Of a DNA stretch of 64,000 nucleotides, positions 1,524-33,759 are shown piece by piece. A model generated the notes under the pieces. That model worked only from the letters and a program-made list of their open reading frames with translations, was not told the DNA's origin and made no database searches. Position numbers and translations under genes: made by a program. Each line of letters begins with the position of its first letter. Position 1 is the stretch's first letter. Origin of the DNA: an uncultured delta proteobacterium (GTDB lineage: Bacteria; Desulfobacterota; WTBG01; CAIYCZ01; CAIRTM01); contig CAWDSQ010000030.1 of assembly GCA_963804955.1 (NCBI GenBank), positions 256,001-320,000 on the forward strand, in the 5' to 3' direction.

Positions 1524-2117
1524 GTGTTGCATGATAAAAGAGATTTGCTGCTTCATGTTTGTTGCGCTCCGTGCGCAACAGCTGTTTTTGAAGCATTGGT
1601 ACAGGACTTTACACTAACAGCTTTTTTCTACAATCCCAATATCCAGCCTGATACGGAATATCAAAAGCGCCTTGAGCATGTACAAACGCTTTGCAGGATG
1701 CAGGATATACCTCTCGTCATACCAGAGTACGACGATGGCAGCTGGGCGCGGCATACGGCCGGCTTGGAACATGAAACTGAAGGCGGCAGTCGCTGCAGTA
1801 TCTGTTTTCAGGTTCGGCTTGCACGTACTGTGTTTGCAGCTCAAACCATGGGTATTGGAACAGTTGCGACAACGCTATCGGTGAGCCCTCATAAAAATGC
1901 CCGTCTTATCAACGATATCGGCTCGGATGCGGCGCAGGGCACGGGCATCATGTTTTTAGATCGTGATTTCAAGAAAAATGATGGATACCGGAAAAGCTGT
2001 GAACTGAGTAGAAAATATGGCCTGTACCGGCAGAAGTATTGCGGCTGCCTGTACAGCCTGCCAATGAAGAGCGAAGATGGAACACCAGTGAGAGCAAAAA
2101 AGCTTTTGAATTTATAG
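1524..2117 (+). CDS. queH: Epoxyqueuosine reductase QueH (DUF208)
   Basis: LLLHVCCAPC, FFYNPNIQP, EGGSRCSIC, YRQKYCGC motifs. Confidence 0.92.
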   Translation: MLHDKRDLLLHVCCAPCATAVFEALVQDFTLTAFFYNPNIQPDTEYQKRLEHVQTLCRMQDIPLVIPEYDDGSWARHTAGLEHETEGGSRCSICFQVRLARTVFAAQTMGIGTVATTLSVSPHKNARLINDIGSDAAQGTGIMFLDRDFKKNDGYRKSCELSRKYGLYRQKYCGCLYSLPMKSEDGTPVRAKKLLNL

Positions 2118-2898
2118 ACATCCTGCCGCGATCTGAAAAACCACGCAGGCAGGGGCTTGTGATGATGCTTGATAAGGGCCTCGGGCTTCATCTTGCAAAG
2201 GACATGGCTGCTGCGGCTCAGTTTATCGATATTGTGAAGCTCGGATGGGCAACCCCCCGCCTTTTTAACGAAGCATTCATCCAGGAAAAGGTGCAAGCTC
2301 TACCGCGATCACGGTATTATGGTCGGCAATGGCGGAACTCTTCTGGAAATAGCCTATCCAGCAGGGCAAAGTCGAACAGTTTCTCGTGTATTGCAGAAAA
2401 CTGGGTCTTGAGCTCATTGAGGTTTCAAACGGCGTCGTGCCCATCAATCCCGGTGAAAAAACAGGTATCATACGCAAAGCCTGCTCCATGGGGTTTTCTG
2501 TCATATCCGAGATCGGTAAAAAAGAACCGGCCGAAGACAGAAGGCTGTCGCTGCCTGACCGCGTCACCGAGGCGAAGCGCGATCTTGATGCCGGAGCGCA
2601 GTACGTGATTATCGAGGCGCGTGAAGGCGGCCGGAATCTCGGGGTTTATGACGAGTCCGGCGGCCTTAAGGAAGATATGGCGCGCTATCTGGCTGAAGAA
2701 ATCGGCATTGAAAATATCATGTTTGAGGCGCCCGAAAAAAGCCAGCAGGCGGAACTGATCCTGCTTTTCGGCAGAGATGTAAACCTCGGCAATATCCGAC
2801 CTGAGGATGTGACATCGCTTGAAACGCTGCGTCGAGGCATACGAGGTGATACGTTTGGCAAAATACCGCATAGCGACCGGCCCTGGCCCGTTCCCTGA
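2077..2898 (+). CDS. comA: Phosphosulfolactate synthase ComA (frameshifted, start approximate)
   Basis: RSEKPRRQGLVMMLDKG, IDIVKLGW, IEVSNG, SEIGKK, VIIEAREGG, IMFEAP, VNLGNI, LETLRRGIRGDT across ORFs 2039 and 2386. Confidence 0.9.
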
Positions 2899-3550
2899 TC
2901 TGCAGGATGAAGAAGTTATAGTCCTCATAGATACGCTGCGTGCCTCAAGCACCATAGTAACAGCTCTCTCCCTTGGCATTGAAACCGTCATCCCCGTTCT
3001 TGATGATCTGCAGGCCTTTTCTCTCAAAAACGACGAAACGGTCATTTCAGGCGAAGCCGGCGGCGTGAAGATTCCCGGGCTATGACATCGGCAATTCGCC
3101 CGTTGAGCTTATTAAAACCTGCCGGCAGTCTTCTTTTTCGACACTTGTTATCAAAACCTCAAATCTTATTCCGCTGCTTGTATCGCTGCCCCGTGCCGTG
3201 GTATGCTCGACCCTGAACCTTGCGGCTGTTGCACGCTTTCTTGCCGGCCGCGAAGCCGTTATTATAGCCTCAGGCGGCAGACGCGGCATTGCAGAGGATT
3301 TGGGCACAGCGCTTGCCCTGGGCAGATATGCTCATGGGCGTGCAATTCGATGCCGGCGGCATAAAGTCTTTTATACAGGAGTCAAATGCGGCGCAGCATC
3401 TGTGCAGCATCGGCTATGCGCAGGATGTTGAATTCATCGCGCGCGTGAATGTGTTTGATATCGTTCCGGTGTATGACGGAAAGGTGATCAGACAAGCAGG
3501 CCTGTACACGCAACTGCGTGCAGGGCCGCCGCAGAGAGCTTACCCTATGA
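2855..3550 (+). CDS. comB: 2-phosphosulfolactate phosphatase ComB (frameshifted)
   Basis: VLIDTLRASSTIVTAL, GEAGGVKIPG-YDIGNSP, C-terminal GYAQDVEFIARVNVFDIVPVY. Confidence 0.85.
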
Positions 3551-4043
3551 TTGATACGCGCATTGTTCACTGCATGCAGGCGGCAGCTGTTGATATGGTT
3601 GTGAGCCTGCCCTGCAATATGCTGTCGGGCATTCTTGACGAAATCGACAGGCTGCCGATCAAGCGCATTCCCGTCTGCCGCGAGGAGGAGGGTGTGGGCA
3701 TTGCGGCAGGTGCGGCGCTGGCAGGCAAAAGGCCCGTGCTGCTGATGCAGAATTCAGGCCTTGGCAATTGCGTGAACGCGCTGGCCTCCCTCACCGGCCT
3801 GTACCGGCTGCCGCTGTTTCTGCTGATGAGCCACCGGGGCGGACCCGGGCGAGCAGATAGCAGCCCAGATCCCCATGGGGCAGGCGGCCCCCGGGCTGCT
3901 TGAAGCGCTTGCTATTCCCTATACGAGCAGTCACAACACCAGCCGATCTGGATACCCTTGCATCCTTCATGCGACAGACATATGCCGACAGCGCTGTCGG
4001 CGCGGCTTTTTTATCGCGGGAGCTGTGGCATGCGGCGAAGTGA
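3547..4043 (+). CDS. comD: Sulfopyruvate decarboxylase subunit alpha (frameshifted)
   Basis: VSLPC, REEEGVGIAAGAALAG, LMQNSGLGN, LMSHRG-EQIAAQIPMG; TPP-enzyme PYR domain; follows comAB. Confidence 0.85.
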
Positions 4044-4583
4044 AATTATAGAGGAAATTGCCCGGCGCGATTGGCTGATTGTGGCAAATATCGGCTATCC
4101 GGCCCGGGAGCTGTTTGCCGCTGCTGACCGGCCGGGCAATTTTTATATGCTCGGCTCCATGGGGCTTGCAAGCTCCATTGGCCTGGGGCTTGCCGTCAGC
4201 CAGCCCGAGCGGGTCTGCGTTATCGACGGCGACGGATCAGTGCTTATGAATCTCGGCTCCCTTGCAACCATAGCCCACCATGCCCCTGATAATTTCTGCC
4301 TGGTCATTGTAGACAACAAGGTCTATGGCAGCACGGGAGGTCAGCCGACCTATACCGGCGGCAAGACCGATCTTGCAGCCCTTGCCCGGGCTGCGGGAAA
4401 TAAGCAGGTAAGCCGTGTCAGCACGAAAGCCCGAGCTGGCACGGGCTCTTGATGAACATGAAGGGCATGCCGCGATTATTATAGCCGATACGGATCCGGG
4501 CAATGAAGACGTGCCCGTCATTCCACTATCGCCAGTTGCAATCAAAGAGCGCTTTATGGCGCGTCTTCATGAAAGGAAAATAA
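4030..4583 (+). CDS. comE: Sulfopyruvate decarboxylase subunit beta (frameshifted)
   Basis: VANIGYPARELF, NFYMLGSMGLASSIGLGLA, IDGDGSVLMN TPP motif, DNKVYGSTGGQPT. Confidence 0.88.
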
Positions 4584-4588
4584 AATCC

Positions 4589-5511
4589 ATGCGCTACCTG
4601 TTCGGTCCTGTCCCGTCCCGAAGGCTCGGGTATTCCCTGGGTGTTGATATCATACCGCATAAGGTCTGCACGCTTGACTGCGTGTACTGTCAGCTCGGGC
4701 CGACAACACTGAAGACCATTGAACGCAGGGCCTATGTCGAGCCCGGTCCCGTTCTTGCCGAACTTGATGAAATTCTTTCACAAAAACTGCAGATAGACTG
4801 CATCACGTTTTCCGGCTCGGGCGAGCCGACGCTTAATACCTGCCTGGGGGATATAATCGCCGGCATAAAAAGCCGCTGCTCCATACCGGTAACGGTGCTC
4901 ACCAACGGGACGCTGCTGCATCTGCCCGAGGTCCGCGCCGGTCTTTTGCAGGCCGATATCGTTTGCCCGTCATTTGATGCGGCCACACCGCAGGCTTTCA
5001 GCAGGATAAACCGTCCGCATGAGAGCCTTATCGCATTGAACATGATGATTGCAGGGTCTGAAAGCATTCCGGCGGGAGTTTTCCGGGAAAATCTATCTTG
5101 AAGTGATGCTTGCCCGCGGAGTCAATGACTCCCCGCAGGAGCTTGAAGCGTTTGCGAAAGTTCTGCCCGAATTCGGAGCTGATCGGATTCAGATTAATAC
5201 CGTGATCCGGCCCGCTGCTGCAGATGGTGTCTGGGCCGTAAGCCCGGCAACGCTTGCAGCAGGCCCGCACCCTTTTCGGTCCGAATGCCGAAATAATCGG
5301 CGGCTTTCTGAAGGAGCGCTCGCTTCATGAGCAGGAGAATATCGCAGACCGCATAGTGCAGCTTGTCGGGCGGCATCCGAGCACCGCACAGGATATCTGC
5401 GCCGCCCTTGGTCTCACCGCTGATCTGGCACATGAATTTTTGAACCAGCTTATCTCGCAGGGCCGCATTTCCAAAACTATACATGGCGGCAGCACGTTTT
5501 ACACGTCGTGA
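4589..5511 (+). CDS. Radical SAM Fe-S oxidoreductase (COG0731-like; frameshifted)
   Basis: FGPVPSRRLGYSLGVD, CTLDCVYC (CxxxCxxC), TFSGSGEPTL, LTNG. Confidence 0.85.
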
Positions 5512-5583: not shown

Positions 5584-5787
5584 TAGAGCGTGTACCTAAA
5601 TCCGGTAACCGAAAATCAGAAAACAGGGGAGTGCGTTAGCAGTATGACAGCATTTCTTGTCATTCCCGCTTGACGGGAATCCCTTTTGGTGTGCAGAAAA
5701 AGGATTCCGGACAAGCGGAATGACCAGGGTCTGTGTTGCTCGTCAACACAGGAATACGGGCTGCAGTATTTTGTTAAATGCTCTCAG
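5584..5787. mobile_element. MITE-like element, copy 1 (about 200 bp)
   Basis: Ends tagagcg...aaatgctct; internal gtcattcccgc-ttga-cgggaatcc hairpin; closely similar to 44621-44823. Confidence 0.7.
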
Positions 5788-5818
5788 GAAGCGGAGAATA
5801 TGGATTTTCAGAAAACGA

Positions 5819-6529
5819 TTACGCCTTTGGGAGATAGAATCGGGGGTTGCGGGGTTTGTTGTCGCAGCGGATCTGAAAATGCAGATAGGTCTGGGGCTTG
5901 CTGCTGGGTGAGCCTCCGACCTCGGCGATTTTTTGTCCCTTGGTAACGGTCTGTCCCTGCGCGACAAGATTTTTCTGATTATTGGCATATACCGTGGCGT
6001 AATTTTCTTTATGCTCGATGATGATGGTGTTGCCGTAGCCTTCCAGAACACCTGAAAACGCCACTGTTCCTTCCTTGGCAGCCTTGACAGGGGCGCCTTC
6101 AGGCGCTTTTATATTAATGCCATCATGTTTGATGCCGCCGTAAATGCCGTATTCCTCAATGATCTTGCCGCGCACGGGCCAGATAAAAAGGCCCGGCCTG
6201 CTGATGATTTTTTCGGGCTGGGTTTTGTCGGTTGCGGCTTTGGTCTCTGAAAGGCTCCTGGGTTTGTCGGCGCCGGGGATGAAAATTTTATCGCCGGCCT
6301 TAATCAGAGATGTGTCTTTTATATTGTTGATCTCGGCCACATCCTGCAGGCTCACGCCATAGAATTTGCAGATTTTCCAAAGGCTTTCTCTTTTCTGCAC
6401 GGTATGATAGGCGCCGGGCATTGACTGTTTTTTGTCTGGAAGAATCGGGGCAGAGGGGCGAAACAGTGCGCAGGCCTGCAGCAGTAATGCCACACTAAAA
6501 ATAAGCAGCAGTGTTTTTGAAAGTCTCAT
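5819..6529 (-). CDS. nlpD: LysM + M23 peptidase lipoprotein (NlpD-like)
   Basis: Signal with lipobox LQAC, LysM (YHTVQKRESLWKI), FIWPVRG, HDGINI, YLHFQIR; near surE. Confidence 0.82.
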   Translation of the reverse strand: MRLSKTLLLIFSVALLLQACALFRPSAPILPDKKQSMPGAYHTVQKRESLWKICKFYGVSLQDVAEINNIKDTSLIKAGDKIFIPGADKPRSLSETKAATDKTQPEKIISRPGLFIWPVRGKIIEEYGIYGGIKHDGINIKAPEGAPVKAAKEGTVAFSGVLEGYGNTIIIEHKENYATVYANNQKNLVAQGQTVTKGQKIAEVGGSPSSKPQTYLHFQIRCDNKPRNPRFYLPKA

Positions 6530-7000
6530 TGCTGTATTAACCATATGCAGGGCTTTTTCAACCGCCTCCCGGGCAGTATGGGCCTTGATGATTTCAGGGC
6601 CGATGTCCCATGTCTGAAGCCCTATGACGGGCTTGCCAATCTTCAGCGCCAGGGCGATTTCTGAAAGCGTGCCGTATGATCCGTCAACGGCGATTACCGC
6701 CATAGCCGCGCGAACCACCAGAATATTGCGCGCATGGCTCAGCCCTGTCGGTATGGCGATGTCGATATACGGGTTGGCATCGCCGAACTCAAAACCGGGC
6801 AGCAGCCCCACAGTCAGCCCGCCGGCCTCACGTGCGCCTTTTGCCGCCATTTCCATCACACCGCCAAGCCCTCCGCAGAACAGCACGGCATTGTTCAGGG
6901 CAATATGGCGTCCCACATCATAGGCAAGGCGTGCAGCCTCTTTGGAACACTCTCCAGCGCCTATGACGCCGATATGGACCCTGTCTTTTATATCGGCCAT
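6530..7000 (-). CDS. TIGR00725 / LOG-family Rossmann-fold nucleotide-binding protein
   Basis: IGVIGAG, CGGLGGVM, GLLPG, TGLSHARN, GSYGTLSEIALALK; appears fused in frame to nlpD. Confidence 0.85.
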
Positions 7001-7728
7001 GATCGTAAAATCTCAAGTGCTTTGTAGTTTGTAAGATCCGTCTGAATCGGTGTTATTGATGCGCAGGCCTCAGAAACCGCCTCGGCATCGGAGCCGGGAA
7101 TTGCATGGTGCCGGTCGCCATCGCCGCCGATCCAGTAATAGATTTCTCCGCGCGGGTTCATGCGTTTTTCGATAGCTCCCTCATAAATGCTTTTGCCCTG
7201 ATGCGTAAAGCGGTATCCCGCTATCGCGCCTCCCTGCGTGTCGGGGATGTTTATGTTCAGAAAGGTATCCGGCGGCAGGCCATGGCGCAGCACTGCGGCT
7301 GCAACCCGGGCTGCAAACTGAGCAGCCGGGCCGAAATTAAAGTTTGAGCGGCAGGCAAGAGATACCGCTATGGCCGGTATGCCCCAGATAGTGGCTTCAA
7401 AGGCTGCGGCTACAGTACCGGAATAGGGTATATCATCGGCCATGTTGGCGCCCTTGTTGATGCCCGACACGACCAGTCCCGGCTTTTCCGGCAGCAGGCT
7501 GTTCACGGCAAGGTTGATGCAGTCCGACGGGGTGCCGTCAACCATGATGCGGCGTTCGGCAAGAGCTGTCGCCCTGAGGGGCCGGTGGAGCGTGAGCGCC
7601 CTTCCCACGGCGCTCATCCCCTGCGCGGGCGCGACTGTCCAAATCCGGCCGAGGCCCATCAGTGCTTCCTCAAGGGCATGAAGGCCCTCGGACTGAATGC
7701 CGTCGTCGTTTGATAGAAGAATAAGCAT
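6988..7728 (-). CDS. surE: 5'/3'-nucleotidase SurE
   Basis: ILLSNDDG, GTPSDC, VSGINKGAN, YSGTVAAA motifs. Confidence 0.95.
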   Translation of the reverse strand: MLILLSNDDGIQSEGLHALEEALMGLGRIWTVAPAQGMSAVGRALTLHRPLRATALAERRIMVDGTPSDCINLAVNSLLPEKPGLVVSGINKGANMADDIPYSGTVAAAFEATIWGIPAIAVSLACRSNFNFGPAAQFAARVAAAVLRHGLPPDTFLNINIPDTQGGAIAGYRFTHQGKSIYEGAIEKRMNPRGEIYYWIGGDGDRHHAIPGSDAEAVSEACASITPIQTDLTNYKALEILRSWPI

Positions 7729-7936
7729 GATAAAAAATACCCAAAAGGGGTTCGGGTGTCAATTAAAACAGTTGCCGGCCTGATGTCAAAATACATTTTT
7801 ATTGACACAATAACATATATTTTCATATAGTTGGAGTTCTATTCGCAGCCAAATCCATATGAAATCTTCGGCGGATGCTGATCGCGAGCCGTTGCAATCA
7901 TAAATACCACACCAGAAACCAAGGAAGGATAGAGGC

Positions 7937-10031
7937 ATGAAAAAAAACGAGTCAAAGCAGATCAGAAATATTGCCATTACCGGCCACGGCAAATCCGGGA
8001 AAACATCCCTGGCCGAAGCGCTTCTCTTCAGCGGCAAGTCGACGGACCGGCTCTGCAAGGTCGACAATGGCGAATCAGTGCTTGACTTCGAGCAGGAGGA
8101 AAAAGACCGCCACATGACCATCATGAGCTCCTTCCACCATGTATCATGGAAGAAGGCGACAATTAATATTATCGACACACCCGGCGACGCGAATTTCGTT
8201 GCCGACACCTATAACAGCCTGCAGGTCGTTGACGGCGCCGTCCTGGTTGTGGATGCTTCATCGGGCGTGCAGCTCATTACCGAGAAGATCTGGCAGCGCC
8301 TGCGCGAGAACAAAGTCCCCTGCCATCATCGTCATCAATAAGCTGGACCGCGAGAATACCGATTTTTACAGGGTTTTTGAAAATATAAAAAACATGCTCA
8401 AGGCAAAGGTCACGCCGCTGCAGATACCCATCGGCAGTCAGGCGAACTTTAAGGGCTTTGTCGATCTGGTGAAACTGAAGGGCTATGCCTTCGCCGCTGA
8501 TGATTCCGGCAACACCTCCGACTGTGACATTCCCGCTGATATTAAAGAACAAGCCGATGAGCTGCGCATGCAGCTCATCGAAGATGTGGCAGAGTCAAGC
8601 GAGGAGCTCATGGAGAAATATCTCGACGGCCAGGAGCTTTCAGATGATGAAATAGCCGCCGGCATCAGGGCCGGCGTTCAGTCAGGCAGCCTCGTCGGTG
8701 TGCTGTGCGCATCGGGGATCAAGAATTTCGGCGCCAAACAGCTTATGGATTTTGTTGTGCAGTTTTTTCCGTCACCGCTTGAGCGGCCTGCTATTCAGGC
8801 ACTAGATGCCAGGTCGGGCGAGCTGAAAGAAGTAATCCCATCCGAGGACGGGCCGCTGTTTGCCTATGTATTCAAGACGATTGCCGACCCCTATGCCGGT
8901 AAGCTCACCATTTTTCGGGTTTTCTCAGGGTCGCTTGCAGCTGATGCAACAGTGTATAATGCCAGGAAAAGGGTCAAAGAAAAGATCGGCTCCATTCTGC
9001 AGCTTGAAGGCAAGGCGCAGAAGCCCATTGACATGGCCGTAGCCGGCGATATCGTGGCGCTGGCAAAATTGCGCGAAACAACCACGGGCGACACCTTCGG
9101 GGTGGAGGGCAAGGAGCTGAACTTCAAGAGTATCGAACATGTCAGGCCGGTTACTTCCTACGCTATCGTCCCGAAGAGCCGCGGCGACGAAGATAAGATG
9201 GCAGGCGCTTTCGCCCGACTGATGGAAGAGGACCCAACGCTGGTCATGAAGCGCGATGAGCAGACCTTCGAGTTCATTCTTTCGGGCGTCGGCCAGGCCC
9301 ACCTTGATGTGACCGTTGCGAAAATGAAACGCAAATTCGGCGTCGAGATCGACATGCAGCTGCCGCGCATTCCCTATCAGGAAACCATCAAGGGAAAAAC
9401 CAGGGTCCAGGGCAAGCATAAAAAACAGACCGGCGGCCGCGGGCAGTTCGCCGACACCTGGATTCAGATCGAGCCCAATGCCCGTGGCGGCGGATTCGAG
9501 TTTGTTGATAAGATCGTTGGCGGCGCCATTCCGCGCAACTATATACCCGCTGTTGAGAAGGGTATCGTCAATCAGATGAAAAAGGGCATCATCGCAGGCT
9601 ATCCGATCGTCGACGTGCGGGTTCTACTCGACGACGGCGGCTACCATGATGTCGATTCGTCAGATATGGCTTTCCAGATAGCAGGGTCCAAGGGCTTTAA
9701 AAAGGGTTTTGTTGAATGCAGCCCGATTCTGCTCGAGCCCATTATGACGGTTGAGGTGACTGTGCCGGAGGACATGACCGGCGACATCATGGGCGACATG
9801 AACAGCCGTCGCGGCCGCGTTCTCGGCATGGAGCAGAGCGTGGGCGGGCAGCTCATCAAGGCCATGGTGCCCCTGTCGGAGATGCAGCGCTATGCGGTTG
9901 AACTCATATCCATGACCAGCGGCAGGGGCATGTTTACCATGGAGTTCGACCACTATGAAGAAGTTCCGCAGCATTTAACGCAGAAGATTATAGCCGCCTC
10001 CAAGCACGGAGAGGAAGAAGACGACGAATAA
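7937..10031 (+). CDS. fusA: Elongation factor G paralog (divergent EF-G2 type; frameshift near 8320)
   Basis: IRNIAITGHGKSGKT, DTPG, NKLD, KKQTGGRGQF, DSSDMAF, LLEPIM. Confidence 0.9.
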
Positions 10032-11084: not shown

Positions 11085-11393
11085 TAACAATGAAGGCACA
11101 AAAAGTGCCCGGGGATTTTTTTAAAGGATTGTATGCAGGCAGTGGATGTTTTTTGTCGTATTGCTTTTTATAAAGTCGTCCCGGGTTTCGCGTGTGCCGA
11201 GGCACAGCAATAAGAGTTTTTTGCCTGAAATACTTTAATTTTTAAATAGTTCGTTTGTTCGGTTTTATATCATTGGCGCACTAATGATTTGACAGAAAAG
11301 GACTTTTTTATTATCATCATTAGAACTTTCTAACTATAGCCAGAGACAGGTGTGCTCCAGTAAAAAGTTAAATATTTGTCAGAGGAACAGGCG

Positions 11394-11880
11394 ATGAATC
11401 ACACAAGTCACATCATCCGGTTTGCAGTCGTGCTGGTAGCAGTGATAGCTGGTTTTTTTACTCTCAGGAGCTTTTTGGTGCCTGACAGCTTCGGCGTACA
11501 GGGAGATTATAAATACGGCTATCATCGGGGGGCCTCGGATGCTGAGCAGGCCGCGCTGCCTGCCCTGTATACGGGCAGCAAAAAATGCGCCCAGTGTCAT
11601 GCTGAAGCAACTGCGGAGTGGCAGGCTGGCAAACATGCAGGAGTAGCATGCGAAACCTGTCATGGCAACTGGCAGGCCCATAATAATAATACCAAAGACA
11701 AAGCAGGCAAAGACAGTTCGGCAGAGGCCTGCATGCTGTGCCACGGAGAAGTTGATGCGCGGCCGGCTGATTTCCCGCAAATTGCCGGATATGAAAAAGC
11801 ATGTGCGAGGACAAGGGCGGGCCTATGAAAAGGGCATGCTCTGCGTGGCCTGCCACAGCGCCCACAGTCCGAAGCAGTAA
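11394..11880 (+). CDS. Membrane-anchored tetraheme cytochrome c (frameshift near 11800)
   Basis: N-terminal TM helix; CAQCH, CETCH, CMLCH, CVACH. Confidence 0.85.
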
Positions 11881-11974
11881 AAGGGCTTATAGCGTGGTGA
11901 GTGCTGGTTTCGGAATCAACGGATTACCTGATAAAAACGATTCTTAAAAAACGAATCAAGCATAAAAAAAGGGA

Positions 11975-12724
11975 ATGGCCATGGTGACGAACAGACGAGA
12001 CTTTTTGAAGCAGGCAGGCTGGACAGTGCTGGGCGGGGGTCTTATGGCGGCTGTGGTACAGGTGCCTGCCCGCGGGGCGCAGGCCTCATCGGGGGGCAGA
12101 ACGCATCTCTACGGCTATGTGGTTGACACCCATACATGCATCGGCTGCGGCAAATGCGTTGAGGCATGCAGGAATGAGAACAGGGTGCCGGAAAATTTCT
12201 ACCGTACATGGATCGAGCGCTACACGATTTATTCCGACGGCAAGGTCGCCGTCGACTCTGTGCAAGGCGGCGAGAAGGGCGCAGCGCAGCTTGAAAAACA
12301 GGGCCGGATTGACCGGTCGTTTTTCGTCCCCAAGCTGTGCAACCACTGCAAGGAGCCCAACTGCGTGCAGGTCTGCCCGGTGGGCGCGACCTATGTGAGC
12401 CGTCAGGGCGTGGTGCTTGTCGATGAAAAGCACTGCGTGGGCTGCGGCTACTGCATTCAGGCCTGCCCCTACGGAGCCCGTTTCATTAACCCGAAAACAC
12501 ATGTCGCCGACAAGTGCACGTGGTGCTATCACCGGGTGCTCAGGGGCCTGAAGCCCGCATGCGTGACCGTCTGCCCGGTCGGCGCGCGGCAGTTCGGAAA
12601 AGTTGACGACCCCAATGACCCTGTCGGCAAGCTTATCAAAGAGGCCCGGCTGCAGGTGCTGAAACCCGAGATGGGCAATCAGCCCATGGTCTTCTACAAT
12701 GGCCTTGACAAGGAGGTGCGGTGA
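11975..12724 (+). CDS. Tat-exported 4Fe-4S dicluster protein (NrfC/DsrO-like)
   Basis: TNRRDFLK Tat motif; four ferredoxin Cys clusters. Confidence 0.9.
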   Translation: MAMVTNRRDFLKQAGWTVLGGGLMAAVVQVPARGAQASSGGRTHLYGYVVDTHTCIGCGKCVEACRNENRVPENFYRTWIERYTIYSDGKVAVDSVQGGEKGAAQLEKQGRIDRSFFVPKLCNHCKEPNCVQVCPVGATYVSRQGVVLVDEKHCVGCGYCIQACPYGARFINPKTHVADKCTWCYHRVLRGLKPACVTVCPVGARQFGKVDDPNDPVGKLIKEARLQVLKPEMGNQPMVFYNGLDKEVR

Positions 12725-13900
12725 TGCTGCATGAAGTGCTGACGCAAGGATTCGTTTTCCCCAATGAGATTGAGGTCCTCTGGAGCCTCATGATCGTGCT
12801 GTATCCCTATATAACCGGCCTTGTGGCCGGAGCGTTCATCGTTTCCTCGCTGTACCATGTTTTCGGCAAAGACGAGCTCAAGCCCGTGGCAAAGTTTTCG
12901 CTCGTGGCGGCATTCAGTTTTCTGCTGTTTGCCTGCACGCCCCTGCTGTTTCATTTGGGCCATCCCGAGCGAGCGTTTAATATCATGTTTACCCCGCATT
13001 TTTATTCGGCCATGTCGGGCTTCGGCTATATATACTCGTTTTACCTGATCGTGGTGCTGCTTGAAATCTGGTTTGTCTTCCGGCCGGATATCATCGCCCG
13101 CGCAAAGAGCAGCACCGGGATTATGAAAGCGCTGTACTGGGTGCTGGCCCTCGGAAGCATGGATGATTCAGAGGAAGCGCTGCATATCGACCACAAAATA
13201 ACCATGGTGCTGGCTGCAATCGGCATCCCGTCGGCCTGCACGCTGCACGGCTATGTCGGGTTCCTGTTCGGATCGCTCAAATCAAATCCCTGGTGGTCAA
13301 CGCCGCTGATGCCGGTCATCTTTCTCATGTCGGCTATCGTGTCGGGCATCGCAATTTTGATTCTTTCCTACTATATCGTCATGGTCATAAAGAAGCAGGC
13401 TGTTGACAACAGCTGCCTGAAGTCCATGTACGGTTTTCTGTGGGGTTTTTTCATTATCGATTTGACCCTTGAATTTCTCAATGAGCTTGCCTCGGTCTAT
13501 GCCCAGAACCAGTCCCATGCGATCCTTGCCCTGCTGATCAGAGGAAAAGCTCAATTTCAGCTATACCATCCTGCAGATGGGCATTTGTTCCGTGATTCCC
13601 CTGGTGGTGCTCGGTTTTGTCGTGCTCAAGCCCATGTCCGATATGCTGCGCAATCGCCTGGGCCTCATCTGCTCGGCATTGATTCTCATACAGGTTTTAG
13701 CCATGCGCTGGAATGTCGTTGTGGGCGGCCAGCTGTTTTCAAAAAGCCTGCGGGGCCTGACGAGCTATATGCCGACATTCCTTGGCCGTGAGGGCATACT
13801 GGTGGCTGTTATTCTGTTCACCATGCCGTTTGTGGTCATGTATGTATTTAATCTGATTCTTCCTCTTTTTGAAAACAAGGGCGAAGAGGCGCAGGGCTGA
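12721..13900 (+). CDS. NrfD/PsrC-family membrane subunit (frameshift near 13550)
   Basis: WSLMIVLYPYITGLVAG, HLGHPER, LHGYVGFLFG, multiple TM helices. Confidence 0.88.
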
Positions 13901-13951
13901 GTGGTGCCGATGGTGCGGTCAATTAATCATAGTTTGAGGAGATGACGTGAC

Positions 13952-15899
13952 ATGCTGACGATATTTGATCCTTTACTGGTTGTCATAGCACTGGTCATCT
14001 GCATTACGGGCTTTATCAAGCGCTCGAAGATGTGGATGAAGGGGAAAACCGATAATGAGAATATAGCAGAAGCAGGCAAGCGCCTGTGGGATTTTATCGT
14101 GTACGGTGTGGCCCACGGCCGCATTTTGCGCGAAGCCTATCCCGGCATCATGCATCTTTTTATCTTTTTCGCGTGCCTGATTCCCGTGCTGGTCATTGTT
14201 GCCGTGCAGGCGCCCTTTACCGTGCCGGCGATGCTGGGCAATGTTCTGTCGCTGGTGCTTGATATCGTCGGGTTGTGCGGTCTTGCCGGTATCGCTCTTG
14301 CCGCCTATCGCCGCTATGTACAGAAGCCTGATCGCCTGAGCGACACAAAGACCGAGGACGCCATAGCCATTATCTGGGTGGCGGCAATCCTTATCATCGG
14401 TTTCTGCATCGAGGGCCTGCGGCTGTCGATAACCGGCGAGGGCGCCCAGTGGGCGCCCTGTGGGTGCTGTTTTTTCCTTTATCTTCAAGCCGCTGCCGCA
14501 GGCCGCTCAGGTGACGCTGCACAGCCTGCTGTGGCGCATTCATTTTTTTATCGTGCTTGCGCTGATTGCGGCTATTCCGTACACCAAGTTTCTGCATCTC
14601 ATTACCTCATCAATTAATATTTTCCTTCGCAAATACGGCCCCCCGGGGGTCATCAGCAAAATAGCCGATTTTGAAACCGCTGAAACCTTCGGCGTTGCCG
14701 CTATCGAGGAGTTTACCCGCACGCAGCTGTTTCAGCTTGACGCCTGCACGCGCTGCGGCCGCTGCCAGGACAACTGCCCGGCCCATTTAAGCGAAAAGCC
14801 CCTGTCGCCTAAAAAACTGCTGCAGGATCTGAAGGCCCATATGGAAGAGAAGCTGGGCGGCAATCCGCCTGCTGCACAGGACGGCGCAGAGGCGAAGCCC
14901 CTTGTGGGCGGCGTGATCGAGACTGATACGATCTGGGCCTGTACGACCTGTCTGGCCTGCCATGCACAGTGTCCGGTGTTTGAAACAACCGTAGATAAGA
15001 CCATTGAAATGCGGCGCAACCTGGTGCTGATGGAGTCCAACTTCCCGCAGGAGGTTCAGGCGGTATTCCGCAATATGGAAAACAACTCCAATCCCTGGGG
15101 CGTGGGCGCGCATACGCGCGGCGACTGGGCAAAAGAGTTCGGCGTGAAACTGGCAAGCTCGGGAGAGCCTTTTGAGTATCTGCTGTATGTAGGCTGCGCC
15201 GGCGCTTTCGACGACCGGTATAAGAAGGTTGCCATAGCCGTCACAAAGATTCTGCAGGCCGCAGGCATTGATTTTGCCATACTCGGGGCTGAGGAGGGCT
15301 GCTGCGGCGATTCGGCCCGCCGGATAGGCAATGAGTACCTGTATGAGACGCTGGTACAGAACAACCTTGCCGCCCTGCAGGGCTATAATGTAAAGAAAAT
15401 CATCACCATGTGCCCGCACTGCCTGAACGCTCTCAAGAACGAATACCCTCAGCATGGCACAAACTTCGAGGTGGTGCATCACAGCCAGCTTATTTTGAAG
15501 CTTATTGAGCAGGGGCGTATCAACCTGAAGCCGGCCGGCCAGAGCATGAAAGTCTGCTATCACGATTCCTGCTTTCTCGGGCGCTATAATGATATCTACG
15601 ATCAGCCCCGCAAGGTGCTGACCTCCATCAAGGGCATTTCGCTCGTCGAGATGGACCGCAACCGCGACCGCGCCTTTTGCTGCGGCGCAGGGGGCGGGCG
15701 CATGTGGATGGAGGAGCATCACGGCAAGCGCATCAATGAGATGCGCACAGACATGGCTCTTGATAAAAATCCTGATGCCATTGCAACGGCATGCCCGTAC
15801 TGCCTGACAATGCTCTATGACGGACTGAAGGTGCGTGAGAAGTCCGAAACGGTCAAGAGCCAGGATATTGCTGAATTTGTTTTAAATGTGATGGAGTGA
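13952..15899 (+). CDS. HdrF-like protein: NarI-type cytochrome b domain fused to 4Fe-4S/CCG (HdrD-like) domain (frameshift near 14460)
   Basis: TM region with His (GIMHLFIF, WRIHFF, KFLHL); CTRCGRC, CTTCLAC; two CCG motifs; YHDSC. Confidence 0.88.
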
Positions 15900-15906
15900 G
15901 CCGACC

Positions 15907-16803
15907 ATGAAAAGAGACAGCCTTAGCAAACTGACAATAGCGGTTCTTACCTCTGTATGCCTGGTGCTGGCTTTCAGCTGTGTCAGGCAGTCCTGCGCGC
16001 AGGATATCGACGACTGCCTTGCCTGCCATCAGGACCGGAACCTTGTAAAGACGGATGCGTCCGGCAGGGTTCACAGCCTGTTTGTCGACAAGGAGGCCTT
16101 TCTTCGGTCAACCCATGGCAGCACTGCATGCGTTGACTGCCATGAGGGTGTCGAGGCAAAAAAACATCCCGCCGCAGGCCTTCCCGACGTACAGTGCTCA
16201 GGATGTCACGAAGAAGAGGCCGGGAAGTACGGGAAAAGCAAGCATGGCCAGCTGCTCACGTCAGGCAATCCCCGTGCCCCTCAGTGTTATGACTGCCATA
16301 CGATGCATGCCGTACTTCCGGCGCAGGATGCCGCATCGACCGTCAATAGCGCCAACCTGTACAAAACCTGCGGCGCCTGCCATGAAGAACAGGCAAAAGC
16401 CGCCCTGGTGCCTCTTATGAGAGGATTTGTGCAGGGTGAAGAGCCCCTTGAGGCTTTGACCCTTACGACCCTTGCTTCTCACATTGCCACGCGTGTGCAA
16501 GGCCATGGTAAAGTGAACCTTGGCTGCGAGTATTCCACCAGGACCTGCTCCAACTGCCACCTTGACCCCATCGATCACGGCTCTGATGCTGTCAAGCCAG
16601 CTGTGTGCGTTAACTGCCACGGTCAGGCGAAAGCGGGAATTATTTTCGGGAAAATCCATAAAGCCAATGTCGTGACAAATCCCTTCCTGTCCGTGCTGCT
16701 TGCCCTGGGATATATCGCGGCACTCGCAGGTTTTGTTTTTTACTGCCGGTCTTCCTGCTGCTGCAAAAAGGCTGAAGGCGGTGAGCCCCCGGCAGAAGGT
16801 TGA
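15907..16803 (+). CDS. Heptaheme cytochrome c with C-terminal membrane anchor
   Basis: Signal peptide; CLACH, CVDCH, CSGCH, CYDCH, CGACH, CSNCH, CVNCH. Confidence 0.88.
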   Translation: MKRDSLSKLTIAVLTSVCLVLAFSCVRQSCAQDIDDCLACHQDRNLVKTDASGRVHSLFVDKEAFLRSTHGSTACVDCHEGVEAKKHPAAGLPDVQCSGCHEEEAGKYGKSKHGQLLTSGNPRAPQCYDCHTMHAVLPAQDAASTVNSANLYKTCGACHEEQAKAALVPLMRGFVQGEEPLEALTLTTLASHIATRVQGHGKVNLGCEYSTRTCSNCHLDPIDHGSDAVKPAVCVNCHGQAKAGIIFGKIHKANVVTNPFLSVLLALGYIAALAGFVFYCRSSCCCKKAEGGEPPAEG

Positions 16804-16934
16804 AAAGAACATGCTTTCACGTAAGCCGTATTAATTGCATGCCGGACACAGACTGATTTTGAGTCATGGCAGTGTCCGGCATTTTTTGTTTAACAAAAAA
16901 ACTGTTTTATTAAAACATACAAATGGAGGTTTTT

Positions 16935-18320
16935 ATGGATGAAGATCTGAAGGAATTAATCGCTCGAGCACGCAAAGCACAGGCTGTTGTCGAGCACTGG
17001 TCTCAGGAGCAGGTAGATGAGATGGCCCTTGCCGCCGCATGGGAAGCGATCAAGCCCGAAAGCGCCAAGGAGTGCGCCGAGCTAGCCGTCAAGGAAACCA
17101 AGATGGGCGTCTATGATAACAAGTATGCCAAGCACCGCAATAAGTGCCTGGGAGCACTCATGGATCTTGAGGGCGTCAAGACCACCGGCGTTGTTGACGA
17201 AGACAGGGAAAAGGGCATTTTCAAGGTTGTGAAGCCCGTGGGCGTTATTTTCGCTCTTATTCCCTGTACCAATCCCACGGCCACGCCGATAGTGAAGGGC
17301 ATTTCAGCCCTCAAGACCCGAAATGCAATTATCATGGCCCCCCACATGGTGGCGCGGCGCTGCACCGGCAAGGCAATTGATTTCATGCGTAAGGGTTTGG
17401 AGAAGGCCGGGGCCCCGGTTGATCTGATTCAGGTTCTTGAGAAGCCTTTTATTGAAAGAAACCAGATGATGATGTCTGCTGCAGACCTCATTATTTCCAC
17501 GGGCGGCGGTGGCGCAGTCAAGGCCGCCTACTCAAGCGGCAAGCCGGCCTACGGCGTGGGCGCCGGCAACTCGGTAGCCATTGTCGACGAGACAGTCAAC
17601 GCTGCGCAAGCGGCTGAAAAAATTGTCGCCAGCAAAACATTCGATAATGCCACCTCCTGCTCGGCTGAAAACTCGGCGATCATTCATGAGTCGAAATGGA
17701 ACGAAATGCTGGAAACCTTCAAGAAACTCGGCGGCTATCTGTGCAATGACGAAGAAAAGGCAAAGCTGAAAGCCGCTATGTGGCCCGACGGTGAGCATAT
17801 CGAAGCCAAGATCGTTGCCCGCTCGGCAAAAGTCATTGCCGGCGCCGCAGGCATTGCAGCCCCCGATGACGTGCGCTTCATCATGGTGCTGGGCAAAGAG
17901 CCCATCGCAGAGGAAAAGTTTGCCGATGAAAAGCTGTCGCCGGTCATGACGCTCTGGAAATATTCTGATTTCGACGGCGCGGTTGACATGCTCAGGCAGA
18001 TCCACGGCGTGCGCGGCGAGGGCCACTGCTGCGCCATTCACACAACCGACCGCAGCCGCATGGTAAAGCTTGCCGAACTGGCGCATGTGAGCCGCATGAT
18101 GGTCAATCAGCCGCAGTGCCTGGCAAACAGCGGCGCCTTCACCAACGGCATGCCCTTCACCATGACGCTCGGGTGCGGCACCTGGGGCGGCAATATTTCA
18201 TCGGACAATATCACCTGGAAGCATATGGTCAACTATACCTGGGTGTCCGAGCCAACGCCAGAGCACAAGCCCGATGAGGAGAAGATTTTCAAGAGCATCT
18301 GGGACAAGTACGGCAAGTAA
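16935..18320 (+). CDS. CoA-acylating aldehyde dehydrogenase (SauS/sulfoacetaldehyde dehydrogenase-like)
   Basis: PCTNPTAT, STGG, GVGAGN, SKTFDNATSCSAENS, EKLSP, TLGCGTWG; GGAGG RBS. Confidence 0.85.
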   Translation: MDEDLKELIARARKAQAVVEHWSQEQVDEMALAAAWEAIKPESAKECAELAVKETKMGVYDNKYAKHRNKCLGALMDLEGVKTTGVVDEDREKGIFKVVKPVGVIFALIPCTNPTATPIVKGISALKTRNAIIMAPHMVARRCTGKAIDFMRKGLEKAGAPVDLIQVLEKPFIERNQMMMSAADLIISTGGGGAVKAAYSSGKPAYGVGAGNSVAIVDETVNAAQAAEKIVASKTFDNATSCSAENSAIIHESKWNEMLETFKKLGGYLCNDEEKAKLKAAMWPDGEHIEAKIVARSAKVIAGAAGIAAPDDVRFIMVLGKEPIAEEKFADEKLSPVMTLWKYSDFDGAVDMLRQIHGVRGEGHCCAIHTTDRSRMVKLAELAHVSRMMVNQPQCLANSGAFTNGMPFTMTLGCGTWGGNISSDNITWKHMVNYTWVSEPTPEHKPDEEKIFKSIWDKYGK

Positions 18321-18367
18321 AAAGATACAGAGATACATCGCGAATAATATTATGTAAGGAGATACGC

Positions 18368-18607
18368 ATGGAAAGACAGGAAGTTGTTGAAAAAATCACG
18401 GGTTTTGCCCGCAAGGCCCTTGCCAAGAAGGATATCGAAATCGCCCCTGACGCGCGGCTCAAGGATCTGGGTATGAACTCCTCCGGCCGCCTGGAGCTGT
18501 TCACCATGATCGAGGACGAGTGGGACCTGATGATGGAAGAGGAAGACCAGGACAAGATCAGAACCGTTAATGACGCTGCCGACTATGTGATGTCACAGGT
18601 CGGCTGA
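18368..18607 (+). CDS. Acyl carrier protein
   Basis: Acidic 79 aa; LKDLGMNSSGRLEL (Ppant Ser) and KIRTVNDAADYV. Confidence 0.8.
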   Translation: MERQEVVEKITGFARKALAKKDIEIAPDARLKDLGMNSSGRLELFTMIEDEWDLMMEEEDQDKIRTVNDAADYVMSQVG

Positions 18608-19477: not shown

Positions 19478-19946
19478 TCAGCCTCCATCGGTCTGGGGAA
19501 AGGCGGTGTTGGAGTAGAGATATTCCACCTTTTCCTTGTGCCGTTTTTCTTCGTTTGCCATCCGAAGGAGCATCTCTTTGACCTGACCGTCGGGATGAAT
19601 GGCAGCCAGACCGGTATAGAAGTTGACAGAGTTCTGCTCCCTGTGGGCGGCCACCAGGTAGACGTCACTGCTGTGCATGTTCTGTTGGATGTCGGGCTTT
19701 TCGAGGTGCTCGGCGATCTTGTAGTCGATCACCTGCGTGAGCCTCAGTGTGCCGGGCCCCAGCTTGCCGGCCTGATAGCTTTCCAGAAATTCGCGGTGCT
19801 TCCGCTCCTCGCTGGCCAGGAAATCAAGGGCATCCCGCGCGGTCTGTGTCCTGCACCGTGTCACAGAGTCCCCGGTAGAACTCGTACGCCTCGATTTCGC
19901 GCTGGATGGCGATATCGATGAAGTCAGACAGCCTTCGCTCCTCCAT
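19478..19946 (-). CDS. Ferritin-like/rubrerythrin-family protein (frameshifted)
   Basis: AIQREIEAYEFY, EERKH, REQNSVNFY, EEKRH; GGAGG RBS. Confidence 0.85.
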
Positions 19947-33662: not shown

Positions 33663-33759
33663 GTCATTATCCTTTTAGATATTATTTTATTGACTGACTC
33701 CTTAAAACTTTGTGTTTTTCAAGACAATACACATCTGTCACTGTACAGCTTACAGGGCA

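Follow-up and report, generated by a model that had tools for sequence, protein, structure and literature searches.

The window, that is, the whole stretch of 64,000 nucleotides analyzed here, carries on its forward strand a six-gene unit (positions 1524-5511) composed of queH, comA, comB, comD, comE and a radical SAM gene. On the strength of sequence comparisons, we consider it likely that queH-comA-comB-comD-comE(-radical SAM) represents a working, vertically inherited operon for the de novo synthesis of sulfoacetaldehyde by the archaeal PEP-dependent route, and that the frame breaks in its genes are consensus errors. Coenzyme M (CoM) and its precursor are commonly regarded as belonging to the chemistry of methanogens.

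All features of the locus lie on the forward strand. A terminator-like hairpin with a 13-pair stem (1262-1291) closes the upstream unit and is likely the 5′ boundary of the com operon. It is followed by queH, encoding epoxyqueuosine reductase (1524-2117; PF02677, 217.2 bits), which is intact and overlaps the start of comA. Pfam and NCBIfam matches of the open reading frame pieces assign ComA, ComB, ComD and ComE to positions 2077-4583, with neighboring genes abutting or overlapping. The phosphosulfolactate synthase gene comA (2077-2898) starts with the ATG at 2077 and contains insertions near 2084, 2295 and 2358, while comB, a member of the 2-phosphosulfolactate phosphatase family (2831-3550, with an approximate start at either 2819 or 2831), contains insertions near 3077, 3328 and 3510. 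The alpha and beta subunits of sulfopyruvate decarboxylase are encoded by comD (3547-4043; insertions near 3843 and 3925) and comE (4030-4583; insertions near 4433 and 4566), the latter reaching its TAA stop at 4581-4583 after one inserted T is skipped. The radical SAM gene (4589-5511) contains insertions near 5058 and 5257, and a second terminator-like hairpin (5654-5680) lies 3′ of it. No transporter gene is found inside the com operon. A sequence-only reading had named the four com genes with exactly these outer ends, which the model matches bear out; its gene list was incomplete in that it omitted queH upstream, the radical SAM gene downstream and a ComC-like gene at 38197-39198.

Besides the frame-broken window copies, intact orthologs from a genome of the same genus (G001) were scored. 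The ComA pieces matched PF02679 with 52.5 and 179 bits and TIGR03849 with 48.7 and 184.1 bits, and the intact ComA scored 288.9 bits with the latter model (cut-off 280). It aligned with ComA of M. jannaschii (PDB 1qwg) at 231.6 bits, whereas the Bacillus-type protein 1u83 gave 148.3 bits. On TIGR03845, the ComD piece of the window reached 123.6 bits and the intact protein 173.9 bits (cut-off 147.95), versus 83 bits on the phosphonopyruvate decarboxylase model. The ComE pieces scored 183 and 28.4 bits on TIGR03846 and the intact protein 217.5 bits, versus 142 bits on the phosphonopyruvate decarboxylase model; the TIGR03846 cut-off of 221.5 is passed by ComE of 11 of the 42 genomes of the class. 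For ComB, the pieces matched PF04029 with 52.7 and 22.5 bits, and the intact protein gave 118.4 bits with PF04029 and 75.9 bits with PDB 2yyv. Its best NCBIfam equivalog reached 103.1 bits where the cut-off is 235, and all eight equivalogs stayed far under their cut-offs. Membership of ComB in the family is thus clear at the Pfam level, with phosphosulfolactate as the putative substrate. By these scores, ComA and ComDE are of the archaeal (methanogen) type. The earlier proposal of a PEP-dependent, methanogen-type route is in line with these scores, ComA, ComD and ComE lying at or near the archaeal equivalog cut-offs and ComB matching at the Pfam level.

The closest known system is the type 1 CoM pathway of class I methanogens (in Methanocaldococcus jannaschii ComA, ComB, ComC, ComDE and MMP16/ComF), which follows the same chemistry up to sulfoacetaldehyde. 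ComA, ComD and ComE are orthologous to it at or near the equivalog level, and a ComB-family phosphatase is present. The system described here differs by its bacterial host, the lack of MMP16, a ComC that is not conserved and the arrangement of the genes as one operon behind queH; moreover, a search for MtaA/CmuA revealed no known CoM-using enzyme here.

The sequence-only reading had regarded the gene set as unusual for a Desulfobacterota-like genome. Instead, it is a trait of the class as a whole, ComA being encoded by 28 of 41 genomes and ComE by 29 of 42, and high-scoring ComE is limited to this class in a sample of 401 genomes of the phylum. The synteny survey suggested earlier revealed an identical gene order in 24 of 28 loci, the remaining four being cut by contig ends. 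In the ComE tree, the sequences of the class form one clade (27 rows, SH-aLRT 97), which clusters with archaeal sequences, within an unresolved radiation, and lies apart from the alphaproteobacterial degradative clades. Among the best 80 ComE loci, comA lies within the flank in three, namely in an archaeal SAG with one comABCDE cluster, in a Freyarchaeota MAG with comA and comB ~1.6 kb downstream, and in Methanobrevibacter with comA ~5.4 kb away. Judging from gene order and phylogeny, the queH-comABDE block appears to have been passed down vertically and to characterize one small class of uncultured Thermodesulfobacteriota.

The rarity claimed for the phylum is also contradicted in print. As early as 2021, the uncultured Desulfobacterota class Candidatus Anaeropigmentia was described to carry archaeal-like comABCDE in 17 of 17 genomes (Murphy et al. 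2021, bioRxiv 10.1101/2021.03.22.436540). Compared by that published description, that class and the genomes studied here have in common the phylum, the archaeal-type gene set and a similar genome size and range of habitats. However, of the described hallmarks cbb3-type oxidase and bchXYZ, COX1 and BchY were not found in the source genome (G000), which is 87% complete, such that its absences are to be read as “not found”. This genome has one SQS_PSY gene and a weak match to V-ATPase subunit I. Furthermore, comC is reported for every Candidatus Anaeropigmentia genome, in contrast to an Ldh_2 gene in 5 of 41 genomes here, and the account of Murphy et al. contains no operon structure, queH linkage or candidates for later steps.

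In the proposed route, sulfite would stem from the organism’s own assimilatory sulfate reduction; a sulfur assimilation cluster with PAPS-reductase, CysN-like and small sulfite reductase genes is located on the window’s contig. ComA would join PEP and sulfite, and ComB would remove the phosphate to yield sulfolactate. A dehydrogenase would then convert sulfolactate to sulfopyruvate, which the thiamine enzyme ComDE would decarboxylate to sulfoacetaldehyde. The CoM route of Xanthobacter autotrophicus Py2 has a common start, with a ComA homolog acting as phosphosulfolactate synthase on PEP and sulfite, but as described it departs from the archaeal route after step one, continuing with Xcb enzymes and requiring no ComB, ComC or ComDE (PMC9457059). 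Here, ComB and ComDE follow ComA, pointing to the archaeal route.

The absence of comC noted earlier holds for the operon, but not for the window, where an intact, solitary gene for a ComC-like Ldh_2 dehydrogenase (38197-39198, forward strand; PF02615, 265.2 bits) is located in a variable region. The best PDB match of its product is the L-sulfolactate dehydrogenase 2x06 (E 1.5e-37), and it scores 192.9 bits on NF040650 against a cut-off of 500. We regard this gene as a candidate for the conversion of sulfolactate to sulfopyruvate in the source genome. The Ldh_2 gene does not track the operon, as it is found in 5 of 41 genomes and one carrier, G016, is without com genes; in four relatives it is likewise solitary, with varying neighbors. 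In relatives without Ldh_2 another enzyme might take over this step, perhaps a general malate/lactate dehydrogenase.

Given a working operon, formation of CoM from sulfoacetaldehyde, via an L-ASST pair or direct reaction with sulfide, is a possibility to be taken seriously though not one to be expected; formation of a sulfoacetyl thioester or sulfoacetate via a SauS-like enzyme is a tentative option, and the remaining weight falls to another sulfonate. The best explanation in its narrower form, in which the operon makes CoM itself as a low-molecular-weight thiol or cofactor, is possible but doubtful overall. The CoM synthase MMP16/ComF (TIGR03287) was not found over its cut-off of 363.95 in any of 41 genomes, the best score of 125.6 bits belonging to an L-ASST paralog. 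The earlier statement that no CoM-forming final step is recognizable thus stands for MMP16, yet it overlooked the L-ASST pair of the source genome as a possible last step, consisting of a COG1900 protein (HcyBio, 513 bits) and a NIL-ferredoxin. In Methanosarcina (M. acetivorans), L-ASST has been implicated as a possible partial backup for MMP16 at sulfide concentrations of at least 0.4 mM, and a slow non-enzymatic reaction of sulfoacetaldehyde with sulfide is described in the same source (PMC12068725). Relatives of L-ASST occur in 41 of 41 genomes, but they are equally common in families without com genes and hence not tied to these. Murphy et al. interpret this gene set as conferring the ability to make CoM, although by their account propylene-degradation enzymes (alkene monooxygenase, 2-hydroxypropyl-CoM/2-oxopropyl-CoM) were not seen in their class. 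Nor did the MtaA/CmuA search reveal a recognizable CoM user: TIGR01463 gave no match in the source genome or in 20 genomes of families f1 and f2 (0/21), and none over the cut-off in the class. A CoM-dependent corrinoid methyltransferase system was dismissed on these grounds.

The archaeal-type enzymes might also serve not, or not only, for CoM. The gene of a SauS-like CoA/ACP-acylating semialdehyde dehydrogenase (16923-18320, forward strand), located 12 kb downstream of the com operon and present only in com-bearing families, encodes a protein with a full-length match to NF047625 of 518.2 bits, under the cut-off of 600, with the next NCBIfam family at 402 bits and a class maximum of 539.3 bits. 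In the PDB it best matches the succinate-semialdehyde dehydrogenase 8cei (325 bits), and close relatives are named sulfoacetaldehyde dehydrogenase by JGI. The gene is directly followed by one for a small acyl carrier protein (18368-18607, forward strand; PF00550, 32 bits), a pair kept in 11 of 11 loci of relatives. In f2 and f4, the two genes are accompanied by a phosphopantetheinyl transferase, a FabD-like acyltransferase and a hydrolase, and no sulfoacetate-CoA ligase, transporter, Xsc or IseG was found paired with the SauS-like loci. Compared to SauS of Cupriavidus necator and Bilophila wadsworthia as described (PMC10413351), the window protein covers the SauS model over its full length and scores more than 100 bits above other NCBIfam families; it differs in staying under the model cut-off (518 vs 600), in having a succinate-semialdehyde dehydrogenase as its nearest solved relative and in its own ACP partner. 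The protein is predicted to work like a SucD/SauS-type acylating semialdehyde dehydrogenase, and we regard it as a candidate consumer of sulfoacetaldehyde with a non-CoM fate.

That the SauS-like enzyme oxidizes sulfoacetaldehyde onto CoA or its own ACP, yielding a sulfoacetyl thioester, is an unlikely alternative. The thioester would be a sulfonate look-alike of malonyl-ACP. Conceivably, the FabD-like acyltransferase, phosphopantetheinyl transferase and hydrolase build the sulfoacetyl group into a sulfonated lipid or metabolite, or the thioester is hydrolyzed to sulfoacetate. If true, bacteria would thereby have a pathway for making a sulfoacetyl building block de novo, starting from sulfite and PEP; we found no description of such a pathway in the literature.

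In bacteria, ComDE is best known from the breakdown of sulfolactate, as in the Roseovarius case. A purely degradative role of the cluster, in which sulfolactate or a different C3 sulfonate is imported and broken down, as by the ComDE of marine Alphaproteobacteria, and no sulfonate is made, is nevertheless improbable. The presence of a SauS-like gene in the window would fit such a role, SauS being known from sulfoacetate degradation as described (PMC10413351). However, the enzymes for building sulfolactate out of PEP and sulfite, ComA and ComB, are encoded in this operon in every locus, and the operon is devoid of a transporter. Xsc (TIGR03457) gave a best score of 328.3 bits against a cut-off of 676.4, and neither a PFL-like glycyl radical enzyme nor DsrA or DsrC, which could release or use sulfite, was found in the genome. 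As no known desulfonating enzyme was found, the route appears to be biosynthetic, in agreement with the direction proposed in the sequence-only reading. The alphaproteobacterial sulfolactate/sulfoquinovose degradation systems (ComDE and Xsc) have the two-subunit sulfopyruvate decarboxylase in common with the system described here, but differ by Xsc, not found here, by the presence of ComA and ComB here and by a separate ComE clade.

A further alternative, which we judge very improbable, takes the frameshifts as genuine: the source organism would have lost sulfoacetaldehyde synthesis recently, leaving the operon as a dead relic. Indeed, tblastn with intact same-genus proteins showed all five genes after queH to be frame-broken as assembled, with 12 frame changes within 3.2 kb. 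Their density, ~3.5 per kb in the operon versus ~0.5 per kb in the neighboring 4 kb, is several-fold above that of the flanks, and in G016, a member of the family, the entire queH-com block seems to be gone. Against a relic, DNA alignment with G001 identified all 12 changes, between 2084 and 5257, as single-base insertions, with no deletion and no nonsense codon. When the insertions are skipped, 272, 237, 164, 183 and 305 codons of comA, comB, comD, comE and the radical SAM gene, respectively, are stop-free, and dN/dS in the operon is 0.08-0.28, resembling the 0.03-0.27 of the flanking housekeeping genes. In the same-genus genome, all six genes are intact and identically ordered. Moreover, the three other metagenome runs X1, X2 and X4 yielded near-identical contigs without the extra bases at 2297, 2356, 3077, 3326, 3843, 3925, 4433 and 4566, although these runs represent related strains, 90-99% alike and not proven to be the same organism, and do not strictly prove an error; one insertion-free contig of 154 bases differs at a single other site. 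The adjoining and essential EF-G gene is likewise split, as are other genes of the window and genome. Based on the intact same-genus copies, the insertion-free contigs, the stop-free frames and the flank-like dN/dS, the frame breaks in the window are almost certainly consensus errors of the assembly, as was presumed when they were first proposed for polishing. This assembly is rich in single-base insertions, and its broken genes should not be taken for pseudogenes.

We can practically discount ComDE being a phosphonopyruvate decarboxylase in a cluster making a phosphonate, a possibility raised with the original proposal: the only solved relative of ComE is 9iz3, the putative beta subunit of a phosphonopyruvate decarboxylase, aligned only over residues 17-109 (82.7 bits), a match that says little as the PDB search returned no solved ComDE structure, whereas ComD and ComE reach just 83 and 142 bits on TIGR03297 (cut-off 312.5) compared to 173.9 and 217.5 bits on the sulfopyruvate models, PEP mutase (TIGR02320) has no match in the source genome, and the neighbors are ComA and ComB.

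Archaeal genes are kept under purifying selection in a class of non-methanogenic, non-sulfate-reducing anaerobes, so the C2 sulfonate must benefit them. Identifying this benefit would extend the sources of organosulfonates in anoxic sediments by a biosynthetic one, and could reveal bacterial use of CoM or new sulfoacetyl chemistry.

The two outer genes of the unit are most likely neighbors by descent, not parts of the pathway. In 26 of 28 loci of relatives queH adjoins comA, the other two being cut by contig ends. A role of QueH as a hidden pathway enzyme providing the missing thiolation step was rejected, as it has the marks of an ordinary queuosine enzyme: it is single-copy in the source genome and is present in 37 of 42 genomes, including all eight of family f3, which lacks ComA, and QueA is present in 38 of 42. 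QueH of f3 and f5 is merely 36-38% identical to the com-linked QueH and shows no synteny with it. The radical SAM protein belongs to an uncharacterized family of about 305-310 amino acids with a C-terminal winged-helix-like part, and has no PDB relative or PHROG match. Only in families f1 and f2 does its gene close the unit. A part in the pathway is unsupported, given that the family is widespread in many phyla, that the gene is missing 3′ of comE in five loci that would have space for it (those of G010 and of four genomes in f4) and that a paralog exists on contig C16. A link of the com genes to an Hdr-like membrane complex, encoded by a DsrMKJOP-like operon at 11376-16803, was likewise rejected as this operon does not track the com operon; orthologs of its fused DsrM-DsrK subunit occur in all 42 genomes, including those without com genes.

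ORF listing and family scans of the window placed pieces of ComA (PF02679, TIGR03849), ComB (PF04029), ComD (TIGR03845) and ComE (TIGR03846) on the forward strand at 2077-4583, with the reading frame shifting between pieces. The comA ATG lies at 2077 and the comE stop at 4581-4583 if one extra T is skipped, so that the span claimed by the sequence-only reading is exact. An intact queH (1524-2117, +) stands ahead of the com block and a broken radical SAM gene (4589-5511, +, ATG at 4589) behind it, and terminator-like hairpins at 1262-1291 and 5654-5680 bound this six-gene unit. The anatomy of the operon, with queH in front and the radical SAM gene behind, is new here. The proposal that these genes represent an archaeal-type route from PEP and sulfite to sulfoacetaldehyde, the precursor of coenzyme M (CoM), describes a real finding and, judged by sequence comparison, was correctly read.

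The window corresponds to C30:256001-320000 of the source genome G000, an assembly of 4.26 Mb in 36 contigs with 87% completeness. In its same-genus relative G001 (460 contigs), all six genes are intact and in the same order, encoding QueH (188 aa), ComA (272), ComB (237), ComD (164), ComE (199, as ORF) and the radical SAM protein (305). In an alignment with the G001 DNA (90% identity), the window shows 12 insertions of a single base each; deletions are absent. The insertions fall in comA (2084, 2295 and 2358), comB (3077, 3328 and 3510), comD (3843 and 3925), comE (4433 and 4566) and the radical SAM gene (5058 and 5257). At every site covered, the extra bases are missing from contigs of three further public metagenome runs (90-99% alike); in one contig of 154 bases, the only departures from the window are a single letter and two gaps, at 2297 and 2356. 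When the inserted bases are ignored, comA, comB, comD, comE and the radical SAM gene are stop-free over 272, 237, 164, 183 and 305 codons, respectively. Values of dN/dS against G001 are 0.08-0.28 for the com-operon genes, the same range as for the flanking QueH, M23, SLOG, SurE and EF-G (0.03-0.27). Single-base insertions are also present in EF-G (7937-10031) and the SLOG/M23 pair, and splitting likewise affects several genes in the operon at 11-18 kb. Thus, the contigs of other runs, the stop-free codons, the flank-like dN/dS and the equally affected neighbouring genes identify the frameshifts of the com operon as consensus errors of the assembly. With 12 insertions in 3.2 kb, the com operon has about a sixfold higher density than the adjoining 4 kb (5800-9700; two insertions and one deletion). 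Five of the 12 directly precede AGC(A/T)G-like words, which may reflect a systematic base-calling effect.

The intact proteins of G001 were scored against family models. ComA reached 288.9 bits on TIGR03849 (cut-off 280) and ComD 173.9 bits on TIGR03845 (cut-off 147.95). ComE scored 217.5 bits on TIGR03846 at a cut-off of 221.5, which is passed by ComE in 11 of the 42 class genomes. ComB was recognised at Pfam level only (118.4 bits on PF04029) and stayed far under every NCBIfam ComB equivalog. ComA matched the M. jannaschii enzyme 1qwg with 231.6 bits, compared to 148.3 bits for the Bacillus-type 1u83. That ComDE is instead of the phosphonopyruvate decarboxylase (Ppd) type was the alternative named beforehand. 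A PDB search, which returned no solved ComDE structure, gave one solved relative for ComE, a putative Ppd beta subunit, with the match limited to residues 17-109. The Ppd model itself gave only 83 and 142 bits on ComD and ComE at a cut-off of 312.5, and no PEP mutase was found in G000, which argues against a Ppd-type ComDE.

The class to which G000 belongs, a small uncultured class of Thermodesulfobacteriota, is represented by 42 genomes in the collection. ComA is encoded in 28 of 41 class genomes including G000; by family, and without G000, the counts are 15/16 in f1, 4/4 in f2, 8/10 in f4, 0/8 in f3 and 0/1 each in f5 and f6. ComE is present in 29 of 42. Synteny was compared over 28 loci from 27 relatives. 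queH adjoins comA in 26 of them and the order comA-comB-comD-comE is kept in 24, the remaining two and four loci, respectively, ending at contig edges. Fifteen loci, exclusively of f1 and f2, have the radical SAM gene after comE; in five others (G010 and four f4 genomes) it is absent despite sufficient space. Another radical SAM gene, distinct from this one, whose best match is the PTO1314-family model at 141 bits, under the cut-off, lies upstream of queH in three f4 loci (G030, G036 and G040) and in the f2 genome G017. Selection acts on the com trait, which extends across the class. A divergent ComDE pair (44% and 40% identity) occurs in one f3 genome (G021:C262:2463-3503), in which ComA was not found; it possibly belongs to a different, cysteate-type supply route.

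In a 401-genome sample of the phylum, ComE matches of at least 200 bits were confined to the class, and weaker ones (108-177 bits) were seen in 16 of 387 other genomes. A scan of the genome collection returned at least 597 ComE-like stretches, the best 80 of which belong to methanogens, Asgard and other archaea, Alphaproteobacteria, Nitrospirota, Acidobacteriota and others. MAGs related to the window carry no closer designation than 'Thermodesulfobacteriota bacterium' or 'Deltaproteobacteria bacterium'. Among the best 80 loci, no bacterium from outside the class carried comA or comB within 6 kb of comDE, and comA lay within the flank in three archaeal loci: a single comABCDE cluster in an archaeal SAG, comA and comB about 1.6 kb downstream in a Freyarchaeota MAG, and comA about 5.4 kb away in Methanobrevibacter. 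In a quick IQ-TREE analysis of 102 ComE rows, the class formed one clade of 27 rows (SH-aLRT 97) with f4 as a subclade (99). The class clade is part of a radiation of unsettled branching order that also includes Methanosarcinales/Methanothrix, Jord-/Freyarchaeota, Methanococcales and further bacterial clades. One old acquisition followed by vertical descent of the com genes would fit this unrooted tree, in which the deep forks are unsettled.

An archaeal-like gene set of this kind has a precedent in the phylum. Murphy et al. 2021 (bioRxiv 10.1101/2021.03.22.436540) describe a complete PEP-dependent CoM gene set in 17 of 17 genomes of Candidatus Anaeropigmentia, a new Desulfobacterota class, find by AnnoTree comABCDE together in only 14 bacterial genomes, and report no propylene-degradation enzymes (alkene monooxygenase, 2-hydroxypropyl-CoM/2-oxopropyl-CoM) in Anaeropigmentia, leaving the function open. 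By this account, an archaeal-type com set in the same phylum is already published, whether or not G000 belongs to Anaeropigmentia; two hallmarks reported there, a cbb3-type oxidase and bchXYZ, were not found in G000 (87% complete). Added here are the position of comC outside the conserved set, the finding of no desulfonation enzyme, and two candidate fates of the product.

The absence of comC from the operon, remarked on in the sequence-only reading, is borne out across the class. Whereas comC is reported from all Anaeropigmentia genomes, an Ldh_2-type gene is present in only five of 41 genomes of the class, one of which, G016, is without com genes. The Ldh_2 gene of the window (38197-39198) is intact and solitary, and its neighbours vary. 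Among solved structures, it resembles L-sulfolactate dehydrogenase 2x06 most (E 1.5e-37), and it scores 192.9 bits on the sulfolactate dehydrogenase model (cut-off 500). The encoded protein may, by this resemblance, act as sulfolactate dehydrogenase in G000; given its sparse distribution, we infer that the class as a whole uses another dehydrogenase. General malate dehydrogenases of methanogens may accept sulfopyruvate. The region around the Ldh_2 gene (33021-43900) is variable. It encodes two lipoprotein paralogs (33021-33662 and 33961-34596) and large surface proteins in which Asp-rich repeats of the calcium-binding type occur. An ORF of 147 aa (37249-37692) and split ORFs (40257-40882) appear PIN-type toxin- and Fic-like by eye, and small toxin-antitoxin-like ORFs are also present.

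The com route is biosynthetic, since no known enzyme to release or respire sulfonate sulfur was found in G000: Xsc was not detected (best 328 bits against 676), nor were a PFL-like glycyl radical enzyme, DsrA or DsrC in this 87% complete genome. Sulfite would be supplied by a sulfur assimilation cluster that precedes the window by about 80-95 kb on its contig (locus L158, G000:C30:165700-179100). This cluster, for sulfur assimilation and methionine, encodes a PLP enzyme, a small NIR_SIR sulfite reductase, frameshifted PAPS-reductase and CysN-like pieces, O-acetylhomoserine sulfhydrylase, MetW, a split CysK, and L-ASST with NIL-ferredoxin.

The first candidate fate of sulfoacetaldehyde is CoM. 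The earlier statement that no CoM-forming last step is recognisable stands with regard to the CoM synthase MMP16, which passed the cut-off of 363.95 in none of 41 genomes (best 125.6 bits), and gives way with regard to the L-ASST pair, which is a candidate for this step. G000 has one COG1900 gene, which reaches 513 bits on HcyBio and is preceded by cysK and followed by a NIL-ferredoxin gene, features that assign the two at sequence level as a homocysteine L-ASST pair; L-ASST relatives are present in 41 of 41 genomes, com genes present or absent. According to Chadwick et al. 2025 (PMC12068725), the main CoM synthase of M. acetivorans is MMP16, a possible backup role for L-ASST is implicated at sulfide concentrations of at least 0.4 mM, and sulfoacetaldehyde reacts slowly with sulfide without enzyme. 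With L-ASST present, its reported backup role and the spontaneous reaction suggest that CoM formation is possible in the G000 lineage, where it would be marked by no dedicated gene. A search of G000, f1 and f2 for MtaA/CmuA-type methyltransferases gave no hit, and a link of the com genes to corrinoid methyltransferases thus does not hold in this lineage.

The second candidate fate is a sulfoacetyl thioester. An operon of about 7 kb (11376-18607, +) begins with the gene for a small multihaem cytochrome, followed by genes for DsrO-like and NrfD/DsrP-like proteins and for a DsrM-DsrK fusion (HdrED-like; 650 aa in relatives). Next come the genes for a c3-like cytochrome, for a SauS-like protein of 465 aa (NCBIfam acylating sulfoacetaldehyde dehydrogenase) and, last, for a small ACP. 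The SauS match is full length at 518.2 bits, under the cut-off of 600 and 116 bits over the next family. The nearest solved relative is the acylating succinate-semialdehyde dehydrogenase 8cei (325 bits), and close relatives are named 'sulfoacetaldehyde dehydrogenase' by JGI and only 'aldehyde dehydrogenase family protein' by NCBI. SauS enzymes are reported to act reversibly on sulfoacetyl-CoA and sulfoacetaldehyde and are members of the acylating succinate-semialdehyde dehydrogenase group (PMC10413351). By analogy, the SauS-like enzyme could plausibly yield a sulfoacetyl thioester, malonate or succinate semialdehyde being equally possible substrates. The gene is present in 21 of 42 class genomes including G000 (beyond G000, 13/16 in f1, 2/4 in f2, 5/11 in f4 and 0/10 in f3, f5 and f6 together), and 20 of the 21 carriers have com genes, G016 being the exception. 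This co-occurrence is weak evidence because it follows family lines. SauS-like and ACP genes stand together in 11 of 11 relatives' loci (L171-L181). In f1, the pair lies behind the Dsr-like operon (six loci and the window); in G018, G034 and G036 (f2/f4), it is tail to tail with genes for an alpha/beta hydrolase, an Sfp-type phosphopantetheinyl transferase and a FabD-like acyltransferase. The SauS-like/ACP set is an uncharacterised ACP-dependent module confined to com-bearing families. The DsrMKJOP-like membrane redox part of the operon covers 11376-16803 (+), in a genome without DsrA or DsrC. A tie between the fused DsrM-DsrK and the com genes was rejected, as its orthologs occur in 42 of 42 class genomes.

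QueH of the com-less families f3 and f5 (L150-L154) is only 36-38% identical to com-linked QueH (L016), identity among com-bearing families being 48-55%, and queH of f3 and f5 lies in a different neighbourhood. Based on this low identity and different setting, queH and the com block may have moved together. Another queuosine gene, queC, is located at 46071-46886 (-) and QueA elsewhere in the genome at G000:C22, which fits queH being an ordinary queuosine enzyme. The radical SAM protein encoded at 4589-5511 (+) has about 305 aa, one CX3CX2C motif and a winged-helix-like tail. No relative was found in the PDB; a paralog lies at G000:C16:105530-106438, and the family is widespread and unnamed (Aminicenantota, Planctomycetota, Campylobacterota and others).

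Farther along the window, an oxidative-stress island (54659-61621) comprises genes for a rubredoxin-reductase-like flavoprotein, an FMN reductase, a flavodiiron protein, a multihaem cytochrome, a Fur-family regulator and ferritin, and rubrerythrin-like pieces are present at 19478-19864 and 45074-45502.
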